NCBI GenBank assembly: GCA_048887225.1
Contig: JBHLJY010000021.1
Location: forward strand, 1-43,682
Direction: 5' to 3'
Length of the DNA: 43,682 nt
Source of the DNA: Candidatus Hodarchaeota archaeon
Lineage (GTDB): Archaea > Asgardarchaeota > Lokiarchaeia > Sigyniarchaeales > SOKP01
Shown here: positions 2 through 3,280 of the stretch, one piece after another
Position numbering within the stretch: position 1 is the first letter of the stretch
Layout of the letters: every line of letters starts with the position of its first letter
Position numbers and translations under genes: made by a program
Notes under the pieces: generated by a model
The model's input: only the letters and a program-made list of their open reading frames with translations
The model's database searches: none
What the model was told of the DNA's origin: nothing

Positions 2-1048
2 TCAGAAAGTAAAGATGTAGGAAGAAAAATTAGTTTTTTTGAGAAATTTCTTCCTGTATGGATTATATTATGCATGGCTCTCGGCATTTTTCTTTCTCAA
101 ATTATACCGGGCATAGGAGAAACGATTGATTCTTGGCAAATTAGAGGAATTTCAATTCCTATTGGAATTTGTTTATTTCTAATGATGTATCCCGCAATGT
201 TAAATCTCCAAGCGTCTGAGTTAAGAAAATTAGGGAAGAATCCGAAACCAATAATATTAACTTTAGTTTCTAATTGGATTATAGCGCCAATAACAGGGCT
301 GACTATGGCTATACTATTCCTAACAGATTTGCAGTTAATATTTGCGATTATTCTATTATCCAGTTCACCTTGTACTGCAATGGTTTTAGTATGGGGTTGG
401 ATGGCAAAAGGAAATCAGGAACAAAATGTAATAACGACTAGCGTAAATACAGCAACAATCATCTTTCTTTATATTCCAGTAATCTCACTCTTAGTGTTTA
501 TCGCAAATATTACATTAGAGAAAAAAATTCCTTTGGATCCTGTTATTCTATTAATTTCGTTATTTATTTTTATAGGACTTCCATTATTACTAGGGATAGT
601 TAGTAAGAAAGTATTGATTAGTACTAAAGGAGAAGTATGGTTTGACAATAAGTATAGACCCGCTGTTTCAAAAATAGCCATAGGAGCGTTATTGATGACT
701 TTAGTTGTCTTATTTTCTCTAAATGGAAACATTCTAATTCAGCGTCCTGACTTATTGCTACTTATAACAATCCCTCTACTATTAGGTTTTGCGATTGTTG
801 TCAGTATAAATCTCATAATCTCTAAATTAGCCAAGTTAAATTACCGAGAAGCAATTATCACTATTATTATTGGATCTTCAAGCCATTTTGAAATTGCTAT
901 TGCCGTTGCTGTTGCGATGTATGGAGTTGGTTCCATTGCTGCGTTAGGAACTACTATGGGCCTCTTCTGGGAGGTTCCAATTATGCTCTCATTAGTTTAT
1001 TTAGGAATATTTTTAAATAAAAAAGGTTTTTGGGAGAGTGAAAAATAA
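2..1048 (+). CDS. acr3: Acr3 family arsenite efflux transporter (5'-partial; the frame is open from the window start)
   Basis: Polytopic membrane protein with Acr3 motifs LMMYPAM, NWIIAP, PCTAMV (conserved Cys) and SSHFEIAIAVA. The frame upstream of 74 reads SESKDVGRKISFFEKFLPVWIILCM, a typical Acr3 N-terminus, so the real start lies before base 1. The stop overlaps the arsM start (TAATG). Confidence 0.93.
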   Translation, partial: SESKDVGRKISFFEKFLPVWIILCMALGIFLSQIIPGIGETIDSWQIRGISIPIGICLFLMMYPAMLNLQASELRKLGKNPKPIILTLVSNWIIAPITGLTMAILFLTDLQLIFAIILLSSSPCTAMVLVWGWMAKGNQEQNVITTSVNTATIIFLYIPVISLLVFIANITLEKKIPLDPVILLISLFIFIGLPLLLGIVSKKVLISTKGEVWFDNKYRPAVSKIAIGALLMTLVVLFSLNGNILIQRPDLLLLITIPLLLGFAIVVSINLIISKLAKLNYREAIITIIIGSSSHFEIAIAVAVAMYGVGSIAALGTTMGLFWEVPIMLSLVYLGIFLNKKGFWESEK

Positions 1049-1899
1049 TGAAAGATGAAGAAATAAAAAAGATTGTTAGAAATGGGTATGCGAAAATAGC
1101 GCAATCTGGAAGTTCTTGCTGTGGACCAGTGAATCCTTGTTGTGGAAGCTCTGAATCTGAAATAATTAAGGATATTAGTAGAAATATAGGTTATACTGAA
1201 GAGGAACTTAATTCCGTTCCAAAAGGAGCAAATCTTGGTCTTGGTTGCGGAAATCCTGTTGCACTCGCTTCAATAAAAGAAGGAGAAACTGTATTAGATT
1301 TAGGATCAGGAGCAGGTTTTGATGCCTTTCTCGCTGCTCAAAAGGTTGGACAGGCAGGAAAAGTTATCGGTGTTGATATGACCCCAGAGATGTTAACAGC
1401 CGCAAGGAAAAACGCTGAAGAGGGCAATTTTAAAAATGTTGAGTTTAGGTTAGGAGAGTTAGAAAATTTACCCGTCGCTGATACCTTCGTTGATTTAATT
1501 ATTTCAAACTGCGTAATCAATCTCGTACCTAGTAAGGAAAGAGTTTTTCAAGAAGCATTCCGAGTATTAAAGCCAAGAGGTCGTTTAATGATTTCCGATA
1601 TAGTCTTACTGAAAGAATTACCAGAATTCATAGTAAATTCTATGGAAGCTTATATCGGATGCGTTTCTGGTGCGATCTTAAAAGAAGAATATGTAAAAGC
1701 AATGAAAAATGCTGGATTTGAAGACATTAAAATTTTAGATCAAACTAGTTTTCCAATAGATGCCTTAACAATAAATCCAAGAGTCATGGAAATAATCAAG
1801 CAAATGGATATTTCAGTTGAAAAATTAAAAGATTTGGCAAACTCCGTTGTCAGCATAAAAGTTGAAGCAATCAAAAAAGAAAAATATATAGGTGATTAG
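1048..1899 (+). CDS. arsM: Arsenite S-adenosylmethionine methyltransferase
   Basis: SAM-binding VLDLGSGAGFD; catalytic-type Cys motifs GLGCGNP, ISNCVINL and GCVSGA; N-terminal SCC..PCC; translationally coupled to acr3. Confidence 0.95.
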   Translation: MKDEEIKKIVRNGYAKIAQSGSSCCGPVNPCCGSSESEIIKDISRNIGYTEEELNSVPKGANLGLGCGNPVALASIKEGETVLDLGSGAGFDAFLAAQKVGQAGKVIGVDMTPEMLTAARKNAEEGNFKNVEFRLGELENLPVADTFVDLIISNCVINLVPSKERVFQEAFRVLKPRGRLMISDIVLLKELPEFIVNSMEAYIGCVSGAILKEEYVKAMKNAGFEDIKILDQTSFPIDALTINPRVMEIIKQMDISVEKLKDLANSVVSIKVEAIKKEKYIGD

Positions 1900-1902
1900 A
1901 AA

Positions 1903-2355
1903 ATCAAGAAAATTAATCTGACTATTTTTGCTCCCGATAAAGAGTTAAATAATGGGGTTGAATATGTAATTCATATAAAAGATAACGGAACCATCATTGA
2001 TTTACTAAGAGATCTTGATAAAAAAATTTATGAAAAGCAGGAGAAATCTTATTTTCCCTTGTTTAAAGGTTTGATCCAAAGTTATCTTCAATTAATTTGG
2101 GATCCTCTAAATAATGTCATTTATGATGATTGTGCTGTGAATGCGTATGGTCCAAACAGAGAGTTTATACCTATTAGGGAAAATGTAAATTTTAATCTCT
2201 ACCCTGATAGTCAAATAACTTTGGTTGTCCATGCAGATTGATGAGCTGATAATATGGAAAAACGCCTAGATTTTGGATCATTTAAAACTATTTTACGAAG
2301 AGAATTCGGAAAAGACGATGAATCTTTTGCCCATTATTTTAAAAAATTAAAATAA
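1903..2355 (+). CDS. Putative selenoprotein, beta-grasp/MoaD-ThiS-like, with tandem Sec-Sec (TGA 2239-2241 and 2242-2244); start codon uncertain (ATC at 1903)
   Basis: Frame is open from 1900 to TAA 2353-2355 except for TGA-TGA: IKKINLTIFAPDKELNNGVEYVIHIKDNGTIIDLLRDLDKK...NLYPDSQITLVVHAD-U-U-ADNMEKRLDFGSFKTILRREFGKDDESFAHYFKKLK*. SD-like GGTGA (1891-1895) lies 7 nt before the ATC. A SECIS-like hairpin starts 5 nt after the TAA. The track ORF 2059-2241 is an internal fragment. The fold assignment is by eye only. Confidence 0.68.
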
Positions 2356-2358
2356 AAC

Positions 2359-2396
2359 GAATGAAATCTTTCAGAAAAAGCTAGTGAAAGATTGAC
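2359..2396 (+). ncRNA. SECIS-like element 1 (eukaryote/Loki-type), cis-acting in the 3' UTR
   Basis: AUGA (2361-2364), AAUCUUUCA (2365-2373), loop GAAAAAGCUAG, UGAAAGAUU (2385-2393), GAC. This gives a perfect 9-bp stem closed by a UGAN/NGAN core with tandem G.A pairs and an A-rich apical loop. Confidence 0.8.
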
Positions 2397-2443
2397 GATA
2401 GGTTTGCCTCCTAATATAAAATTGAAGTATATGAGTAATTAAT

Positions 2444-2656
2444 ATGATGTATACAAGTAATGTTAAATGTCCACATTGTGGGCATATAAATGAAACTAAA
2501 ATACCAGAAAAAATGTGATTAATGTGGATTAAATGTCAAGGTTGCGATAAAGTTATATGGGGACATGAAAATCCTCATGGCTGAAATTGAGTTTTGTGTA
2601 CTTATAGCGACATTCCTTGACTAAAACTCCAAGAAGAAATGGAACAAAAAAAATGA
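2444..2656 (+). CDS. GDCCVxC-family-like small Cys/Sec-rich protein with four putative selenocysteines
   Basis: MMYTSNVKCPHCGHINETKIPEKM-U-LMWIKCQGCDKVIWGHENPHG-U-N-U-VLCTYSDIP-U-LKLQEEMEQKK*. TGA at 2516, 2582, 2588 and 2618 (codons 25, 47, 49, 59). The layout matches the recalled family pattern CPxCG..MP..xC..xCxxC..GDCCVxCSY...CPPxQ. SECIS-like element 2 follows. Confidence 0.85.
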
Positions 2657-2662
2657 GATATT

Positions 2663-2700
2663 GAATGAAATCTTTCAAAAAATGCTGGTGAAAGATTGAC
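2663..2700 (+). ncRNA. SECIS-like element 2 (eukaryote/Loki-type)
   Basis: AUGA (2665-2668), AAUCUUUCA (2669-2677), loop AAAAAUGCUGG, UGAAAGAUU (2689-2697), GAC. It is identical to 2359-2396 at 35 of 38 nt, and all 3 differences are in the loop. Confidence 0.82.
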
Positions 2701-2801
2701 AAGAGGATTGTGTCCTTCTAATCATTTAATATAAACTATAAATTAAAAAATTTCATCGATTATGTGTACAGTGCTGTATTAAATAAGAAATATTGATTTT
2801 A

Positions 2802-2948
2802 TTAATTTTTTTCTGCTTTTAATTTTGCTTTTTTTCTTAAATATAATAAAATCTTTATAATAATATAGAGCCCAATCGCTATTAGACCAATTGCACCAAG
2901 TATCATTAATAAATAGTATCCTCCTATATCTGCCTCAAGTTCCGCCAT
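2802..2948 (-). CDS. Small single-pass membrane protein (48 aa, not in the ORF track)
   Basis: Hand translation: MAELEADIGGYYLLMILGAIGLIAIGLYIIIKILLYLRKKAKLKAEKN*. Acidic N-terminus, one hydrophobic helix, basic tail. Confidence 0.6.
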   Translation of the reverse strand: MAELEADIGGYYLLMILGAIGLIAIGLYIIIKILLYLRKKAKLKAEKN

Positions 2949-3010
2949 AATTATGACTATTTTCTTTGATTAAAGGGTAAATTTTCAAGTTTAATAATTA
3001 AAATAAATAA

Positions 3011-3280
3011 TTAACCCCATTTACTTCTATAACCTGTCCCCCCTTCAGGCCACGTAAATTTTAACGCTTCTTCTGCGCAAACGTACCAGCAAGCAGCACA
3101 TTCCATGCATTTTTCAAGACTTTTTATTTTAGCTTTTTTATTAACAATCTCAAAACACGCCGCTAAGCACACTTTCACGCAATTCGCACATCCAGTGCAT
3201 ATTTGCTCGTTTATTTTAATAAAATCGCCAGTTCCTTCTATCCATTCAACACCTGGAAATTCATTGAAAGTTTTCACCAT
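3011..3280 (-). CDS. 2x[4Fe-4S] ferredoxin, FixX-like
   Basis: CTGCANCVKVC and CMECAACWYVC motifs; FixX-like C-terminus WPEGGTGYRSKWG; lies 1 nt downstream of a FixC-like gene. Confidence 0.88.
   Translation of the reverse strand: MVKTFNEFPGVEWIEGTGDFIKINEQICTGCANCVKVCLAACFEIVNKKAKIKSLEKCMECAACWYVCAEEALKFTWPEGGTGYRSKWG

Follow-up and report, generated by a model that had tools for sequence, protein, structure and literature searches.

Two lokiSECIS-type hairpins mark probable, unlisted selenoprotein genes in an arsenic-resistance operon of a Candidatus Hodarchaeota archaeon

Two near-identical hairpins, each located just downstream of a small gene in an arsenic-resistance operon, are very probably functional type-I Asgard SECIS elements (lokiSECIS) that would cause the upstream UGA codons, two in gene 1 and four in gene 2, to be read as selenocysteine (Sec, U). 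The hairpins belong to the eukaryote-like SECIS type already described for Lokiarchaeota, an RNA class known since 2016. This known class marks unlisted selenoprotein genes here; the elements are not new in kind, and the genes they serve are unlisted. The evidence computed in this study comprises the features of the hairpins, their covariation, their association with UGA-containing genes, the coding continuity through the UGAs, the Sec/Cys pairs of gene 2, and the Sec machinery of the genome. The window, which is the whole stretch of 43,682 nucleotides analysed, is contig C21 of a 3.27-Mb assembly with 30% G+C.

The initial annotation had reported a repeated 38-nt string, GAATGAAATCTTTCA-N11-TGAAAGATTGAC, and the two locations given, 2359-2396 and 2663-2700, proved exact. 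Of the 38 positions, 35 agree between the copies; the three mismatches all fall in the loop, as described before (positions 1, 6, and 10: GAAAAAGCTAG vs AAAAATGCTGG); the loops are GAAAAAGCUAG in copy 1 and AAAAAUGCUGG in copy 2. The short gap behind the genes was confirmed, with the AUGA 5 nt past the TAA of gene 1 and 8 nt past the TGA of gene 2 (Table 1). Each copy has nine perfect stem pairs and an 11-nt loop, and RNAfold draws the 9-bp hairpin in both. The eukaryote-like SECIS reading also stood, as an AUGA..GA core and an A-rich loop are present in each copy, directly 3' of a gene with in-frame UGAs. The direct repeat itself spans 101 nt at 70% identity (2342-2442 vs 2646-2746) and is longer than the earlier 38 nt because it includes a second small hairpin downstream. 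Since this 3' hairpin belongs to the element, each element measures about 56 nt, not 38. The folding energies were unremarkable for such a composition, with AU-rich stems (z = -1.7 for SECIS-1 and -0.6 for SECIS-2). Because these z-scores are not distinctive, the argument for the structure is covariation rather than energy.

Table 1. Coordinates of the genes, SECIS elements, and their parts in the window.
Feature	Position	Strand	Details
acr3, arsenite efflux permease	2..1048	+	TIGR00832, 262 bits vs cut-off 282.8
arsM, arsenite methyltransferase	1048..1899	+	NF008823, 356.7 bits vs cut-off 263
Gene 1, beta-grasp protein	1900..2355	+	UGA-UGA 2239-2244; stop TAA 2353-2355
SECIS-1	2358..2413	+	Motif, alignment, covariance model 80 bits
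SECIS-1 C-stem	2358-2359 with 2396-2397
SECIS-1 3-nt bulge	2360-2362
SECIS-1 AUGA; GA	2361-2364; 2394-2395
SECIS-1 G.A/A.G pairs (predicted)	2363-2364 with 2394-2395
SECIS-1 stem	2365-2373 with 2385-2393
SECIS-1 11-nt loop	2374-2384
SECIS-1 3' mini-hairpin	2399-2413
TATA-like TAATATAAAA	2412..2421	+	Centre ~27-28 nt before ATG 2444; overlaps mini-hairpin 3' end
Gene 2, GDCCVxC-family protein, 70 residues	2444..2656	+	NF041374; Sec codons (predicted) 2516, 2582, 2588, 2618; stop UGA 2654-2656
SECIS-2	2661..2717	+	Motif, alignment, covariance model 77 bits
SECIS-2 C-stem	2661-2663 with 2700-2702
SECIS-2 bulge	2664-2666
SECIS-2 AUGA; GA	2665-2668; 2698-2699
SECIS-2 G.A/A.G pairs (predicted)	2667-2668 with 2698-2699
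SECIS-2 stem	2669-2677 with 2689-2697
SECIS-2 loop	2678-2688
SECIS-2 mini-hairpin	2703-2717

All published features of lokiSECIS are present in both window copies. According to the main text of Mariotti 2016 (PMC4989117), the stem has 9 bp, with AUGA on its 5' side and GA on its 3' side, and the element lies near the end of the CDS; in the 11-nt loop, the five leading bases are preferentially A, and the final G is ultraconserved and usually has an A in front of it. In the main text of Huang 2024 (PMC11227280), lokiSECIS is named the type I eSECIS-like structure. The window elements resemble lokiSECIS in the AUGA, the 9-bp stem, the 11-nt loop with leading As and a final G, the GA(C), and the position a few nucleotides past the stop, and a UGA near the element serves as the stop there as here. 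The element is no different, whereas the genes served differ, two of them lying outside the five- and seven-family lists of the two main texts. The Rfam search gave no match at the gathering score in the window and no SECIS family at E up to 10 on 2300-2780; the main text of Mariotti 2016 (PMC4989117) states that existing SECIS models likewise miss lokiSECIS. Because Rfam has no matching family, class membership rests on the published descriptions and on our own covariance model, which was partly trained on these sequences.

Compared with the eukaryotic SECIS (SECIS_1, RF00031), the window elements have the same AUGA..GA quartet, unpaired As in the apical loop, and 3' position. The upper stem is shorter, as the initial annotation had pointed out (9 bp here vs about 12 or more), and the long helix I and internal loop of the eukaryotic element contrast with a 2-3-bp C-stem flush against a 3-nt bulge in the window elements, which lie 5-8 nt past the stop. 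SBP2, a large protein with an L7Ae domain, was not found in the genome, where only two PF01248 matches occur, in open frames of 123 and 135 aa; the same SBP2 absence is reported in the main text of Mariotti 2016 (PMC4989117). The euryarchaeal SECIS (Methanococcus type, GAA_A bulge) likewise occupies a 3' position and is served by an archaeal SelB without a known SECIS-binding domain, but it has GC-rich stems and a GAA/A asymmetric bulge, in contrast to the AU-rich stems and tandem G.A core found here. The canonical kink-turn (box C/D, Kt-7), to which L7Ae binds, has the C-stem, 3-nt bulge, tandem G.A/A.G pairs, and non-canonical stem with an often non-Watson-Crick first pair that are predicted here as well; the A-rich apical loop and 3' hairpin of the window elements have no counterpart in box C/D RNAs.

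For the comparative analysis, we aligned 89 elements, 11 from the same genome and 78 from orthologous loci of other Asgard genomes, of which 88 were distinct. All nine pairs of the main stem showed compensatory changes and 93% of the cells were paired (88 distinct elements), with a covariation score of 0.47 vs 0.18 when shuffled and at most 0.145 with the partner slid. The AUGA and GA columns were invariant in the 89 aligned elements, as were loop positions 3-5 and the terminal G. The alignment also revealed a closing pair (col13:col50) between the base after the GA (the C of GAC) and the base four positions before the GA of AUGA. It was paired in 88 of 88 elements (GC 71, CG 14, UA 2, and AU 1), which explains the conserved GAC, and the bulge that it leaves was always 3 nt, N-A-U. 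The pair adjoining the G.A pairs (col19:47) was unpaired in 44 of the 88; in kink-turns, the first pair of the non-canonical stem is usually non-standard. The layout of the element, as predicted from these columns, matches the canonical kink-turn in its C-stem, 3-nt bulge, and tandem G.A pairs. A 3' hairpin of at least four pairs, starting no more than 8 nt past the GA, was present in all 88 elements with 49 different stem sequences, and 29% of shuffled tails folded equally well. In the hydrogenase-type elements of this genome, an outer helix was seen to enclose the 3' hairpin as well. The main texts of PMC4989117 and PMC11227280 describe the core, stem, and loop only; the closing pair with its bulge and the 3' mini-hairpin are not in them.

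Gene 1 follows acr3, whose score is just under the cut-off because its N-terminus is missing (the 5' end is cut by the window), and arsM. The frame of gene 1 is open from 1900 and contains no in-frame ATG, GTG, or TTG before 2059; translation probably starts at ATC 1903, which an SD-like GGTGA (1891-1895) precedes. The start region is identical in the independent MAG L001, and nine other orthologues have GGTGA and then ATT or ATC right after an in-frame stop, an arrangement that points to an ATY codon as a non-canonical start or to coupling with the termination of arsM. A 1-nt assembly error at the start of gene 1 was ruled out by the same sequence in L001 and the same arrangement in the nine other orthologues. 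The predicted fold of the protein (pLDDT 87) is closest to Urm1, SAMP1, and MoaD, with a weak E-value (5e-3) and a probability of ~1.0. By tblastn, acr3 was found in 43 of 55 gene-1 loci, mostly directly upstream of gene 1.

No Pfam or NCBIfam family matched gene 1, and its more than 120 database homologues are Asgard proteins annotated as ending in ...VHAD or as reading WW. The UGA-UGA, in the context HAD-UU-AD, was invariant in 54 distinct orthologous DNA sequences and was never replaced by TAA, TAG, or a Cys codon. No Cys-containing homologue of gene 1 was found, and the Sec/Cys comparison is thus limited to gene 2. The codon-position entropies were 0.46/0.38/0.91 over the 32 codons after the UGA-UGA vs 0.46/0.26/1.16 before it, and a SECIS lies right after the gene-1 stop in 51 of the 55 loci. 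A branch of gene-1 paralogues (L005, L015, L019, L020, and L024-L027) reads DSGC-UU-EKV and has no Met after the UGAs, which excludes the tail of gene 1 as an ORF of its own. Together with the conserved frame and periodicity, these paralogues (UUEKV...) ruled out a double stop at the UGA-UGA with an independent 33-aa ORF (2254-2355) behind it.

Two further observations concern the cysteines around gene 1. The DSGC-UU-EKV branch does not have the invariant Cys78 of the window's branch (DDCAV), and each branch has one Cys plus the Sec pair; by analogy, one Cys and a Sec pair could give three ligands as in As(III) sites. In L003, L008, L012, and L040 (~2450-2950), acr3 and gene 1 are separated by two small Cys-rich ORFs, which form one fused frame in L040. 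The sequence ...HSSCN..CNKDSP...HCGTDRC occurs in one of them, and DACACEW in the other, which is thioredoxin-like; both are absent from the window, where arsM stands in their place.

Gene 2 matched NF041374 (GDCCVxC domain-containing (seleno)protein) over residues 5-64 with 46.7 bits (cut-off 40), and its motif in the window is G-U-x-U-V-L-C. The four UGAs are conserved in about 26 genomes belonging to two families of the order. Other families have TGA-free forms of gene 2 with GDCCVFC, and three of the four U positions align with Cys. Five loci with the Cys form of gene 2 were scanned, and no SECIS match was found in them. In L066 (L066:1907-3193), a gene-2 orthologue with another SECIS type is followed by a MerA-like pyridine-nucleotide-disulphide oxidoreductase with a dimerisation domain; because of this neighbour, gene 2 is not tied to arsenic genes everywhere.

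The initial annotation had further held that each cistron needs its own 3' SECIS. This claim failed, as the HdrA-VhuD pairs of this genome and the gene-1-paralogue/gene-2 module in L060 have one SECIS per pair. The four hdrA genes (C1, C8, and C16; ~660-680 aa) contain two to four in-frame UGAs each; the only SECIS stands behind vhuD, 1.8-2.4 kb downstream of two UGAs whose contexts (CRUGINI and DDCSIUILGP) are conserved in all four. The L060 locus, whose genome belongs to the same family, has a single SECIS behind a row of three genes (L060:860-1800), namely an ArsM-like methyltransferase gene, a C-U-U paralogue of gene 1, and gene 2, and the two selenoprotein genes are separated by 12 nt. 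Similarly, two tandem gene-1 paralogues share one common SECIS in L015 and L025. If genes 1 and 2 are carried on one mRNA, we infer, rather than observe, which element serves which gene.

As one SECIS is enough in the L060 module, one of the window copies might be dispensable. Only one element would then be needed, and the other would be a redundant copy that adds little to recoding, either a remnant of cassette insertion or loss or a copy held similar by gene conversion. We consider this improbable, even though the shared elements in L060, in L015 and L025, and behind the hdrA-vhuD pairs speak for it. The closest relative, L001 (96% protein identity for acr3 and 93% for arsM), also fits it: when L001:3310-3900 is compared with window positions 2200-3050, a unit of exactly 304 nt (gene 2 plus one SECIS) is missing and near-identity resumes downstream, so that the two SECIS copies behave as direct repeats flanking a gene cassette. 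Furthermore, the penultimate loop base of SECIS-2 is G, at a nearly invariant position where A is conserved in at least 90% of the aligned elements. The SECIS types point in the same direction. The L060-type gene-2 orthologues, including the examined ones without an adjacent separate SECIS, have the type ..CGAUAA/UUAUCG.. followed by GAG, gene-2 orthologues with a further SECIS copy in the same locus have the gene-1 type, and the gene-2 protein of the window is closer to the L060 form. SECIS-2 thus looks copied from the gene-1 type, and the SECIS appears to follow its neighbourhood, via duplication or conversion. However, both window copies retain all invariant positions, perfect 9-bp stems, the C-stem, and the mini-hairpin; the 51 of 55 gene-1 loci mentioned above retain a SECIS directly behind gene 1; and L005, L062, and L072 have three SECIS copies each; in L005, one copy follows gene 1, one its paralogue, and one gene 2.

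The TATA-like stretch between the two genes is a plausible candidate promoter for a separate gene-2 transcript, judged by its position. Archaeal TATA boxes of leaderless genes usually stand at such a distance (~27-28 nt) from the start codon. A similar AT-rich block, conserved in several loci, occurs in L020, where it lies downstream of the gene-1 SECIS and ~30-60 nt ahead of the following gene. The TATA-like reading is weakened by the frequency of AT-rich strings at 30% G+C and by the overlap with the mini-hairpin.

We scanned the genome for the motif, as the initial annotation had proposed. The strict motif consisted of ATGA, nine pairs (one mismatch allowed), an 11-nt A-rich loop with G as its last base, and GA or AA behind the stem. 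The scan resulted in 13 matches in the real genome, 11 of which also have the closing pair, none in the reversed genome, and one or two in each of five block-shuffled genomes, so the motif is far more frequent than chance would give. The upstream frame was read for 11 matches, which follow vhuD/mvhD (four times), selD, vhuU, prxL, an AhpD-like gene, a small membrane gene, and the two genes of the window; one strict match on C1 has no long upstream frame. Wherever the upstream frame could be read, the gene in front of the match contained UGA, and most of these genes belong to known selenoprotein families (vhuD four times, selD, vhuU, and prxL). The motifs of the upstream genes were CWKUGYG and AGUYP in vhuD, FGUSCK in selD, DCULSC in vhuU, WUAHC in the peroxiredoxin-like gene, CKPU in the AhpD/CMD-like gene, and GGGUGC in the membrane gene. 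According to the initial annotation, a motif spread behind TGA-free genes and missing from known selenoprotein loci would speak against SECIS; we looked for this pattern, and the outcome favours SECIS.

These matches bear directly on the possibility that the hairpins are terminators, REP-like repeats, or kink-turns for another use (e.g., L7Ae regulation), with gene 1 ending at a double stop and gene 2 being no gene. The position at gene ends, the unremarkable energy z-scores, and the AT-rich sequence downstream would agree with it. Nevertheless, it is very unlikely: the matches stand behind UGA-containing genes, so the motif is not a terminator or REP-like repeat, periodicity runs on through the UGA-UGA of gene 1, the Cys-form homologues of gene 2 lack the element, and there is no T run 3' of the elements.

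A covariance model built from our alignment gave the window copies the scores listed in Table 1 and one extra variant on C12. The search scored 150 of ~5700 first-look candidates and missed two known copies (C8 and C35); therefore, the element inventory rests on the motif scan. The variant (G000:C12:40251-40327, minus strand; 37 bits) has AUGC in place of the AUGA core, together with an outer helix (CCGAAA/UUUCGG), and no long ORF was found directly upstream of it. It may be a degenerate or variant SECIS.

A selenium-free reading of UGA as Trp or Cys, either throughout the genome or through near-cognate suppression, has a negligible chance, since the five database homologues that show WW at the UGA-UGA site come from short contigs, presumably called with code 4, the gene-2 UGAs align with Cys and not Trp, and the Sec machinery is complete. 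Global TGA reassignment was ruled out because TGA is the ordinary stop of 297 of 2095 long ORFs (14%). The machinery includes SepSecS (490 bits), SelB (248.6 bits, with an aSelB_III domain), a PSTK-like match, and a SelD with an in-frame UGA. The tRNA-Sec gene (G000:C4:44554-44706; L100:8055-8207) lies about 25 nt upstream of SepSecS and has a 9-bp acceptor stem, a UCA anticodon in a CUUCAAA anticodon loop, and an encoded CCA. It differs from the genes of relatives by two insertions, putative introns, one located in the D-arm region and one in the T-loop. Because of these insertions, the standard tools missed it: it was not detected on this genome by ARAGORN in several modes, by Rfam RF01852, or by two hand-written patterns, and only a BLAST search that used the tRNA-Sec genes of relatives located it. 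No tRNA-Sec match over the cut-off was obtained in eight further genomes of the genus.

The distances between the codons and the elements separate the two uses of UGA. In the gene-1 family (63 members) and the gene-2 family (21 members), the conserved Sec-UGAs lie 41-170 nt before the AUGA, and the terminating UGAs lie between -1 nt (the UGA of the AUGA itself) and 21 nt before it. In gene 2 of the window, the Sec-UGAs are 149, 83, 77, and 47 nt before the AUGA and the stop UGA is 11 nt before it. This Sec/stop spacing agrees with the constraint proposed in the main text of Mariotti 2016 (PMC4989117). In the proposed mechanism, the RNA would fold into a kink-turn made of the 2-3-bp C-stem, the 3-nt bulge N-A-U, and tandem sheared G.A/A.G pairs, topped by the 9-bp stem and the 11-nt A-rich loop ending in G and followed by a short clamp hairpin on the 3' side. 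Placed 5-8 nt past the stop, the element would let archaeal SelB and Sec-tRNA(Sec) decode the upstream UGAs as selenocysteine. A UGA too near the element, such as the one at 11 nt in gene 2, would escape recoding and terminate translation.

The main text of Mariotti 2016 (PMC4989117) notes that no archaeal SECIS-binding protein was known at that time. We tentatively suggest, with the odds rather against it, that the Asgard SECIS is a textbook L7Ae-type kink-turn with a 3' clamp hairpin and that ordinary L7Ae, one of only two L7Ae-domain proteins found, is a candidate SECIS-binding protein. If this is true, L7Ae would be the functional forerunner of eukaryotic SBP2, and L7Ae together with the spacing would provide a concrete archaeal Sec-insertion mechanism, including efficient decoding of adjacent UGAs.

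Genes 1 and 2 are absent from the five families in the main text of Mariotti 2016 (PMC4989117) and from the seven in that of Huang 2024 (PMC11227280), and neither is mentioned in a 2026 review (PMC13188914) or in Sun 2021; the family name GDCCVxC was not found in the literature searched. The genome holds at least four selenoprotein genes beyond the seven Asgard families of the 2024 survey, two of which, the invariant Sec-Sec pair protein and the four-Sec protein, are within the arsenic-resistance operon. As the unlisted genes were revealed by the SECIS scan, homology-only surveys undercount Asgard selenoproteomes. The 88-element set sharpens the structure model by adding a kink-turn closing pair that covaries, the bulge of 3 nt, and a 3' hairpin shared by all elements, and an empirical distance rule separates Sec-UGA from stop-UGA; the model and the rule bear on the recognition of archaeal and early eukaryotic SECIS.

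Two matches of the scan lie behind other small genes. On C14 (G000:C14:29931-30256; L095:1210-1535), a small membrane-anchored protein with GGGUGC, for which no Pfam family scored above the cut-off, is followed by a lokiSECIS, and its likely stop is a UGA 20 nt before the AUGA. On C18 (G000:C18:47488-47808; L097:1215-1535), an 85-aa AhpD/CMD-like protein with CKPU matched PF02627 at the cut-off (22.9 bits); this CKPU family is absent from the Asgard selenoprotein lists in the main texts of Mariotti 2016 and Huang 2024. The lokiSECIS behind the C18 gene scored 75.9 bits and has the same sequence type as those in the window.
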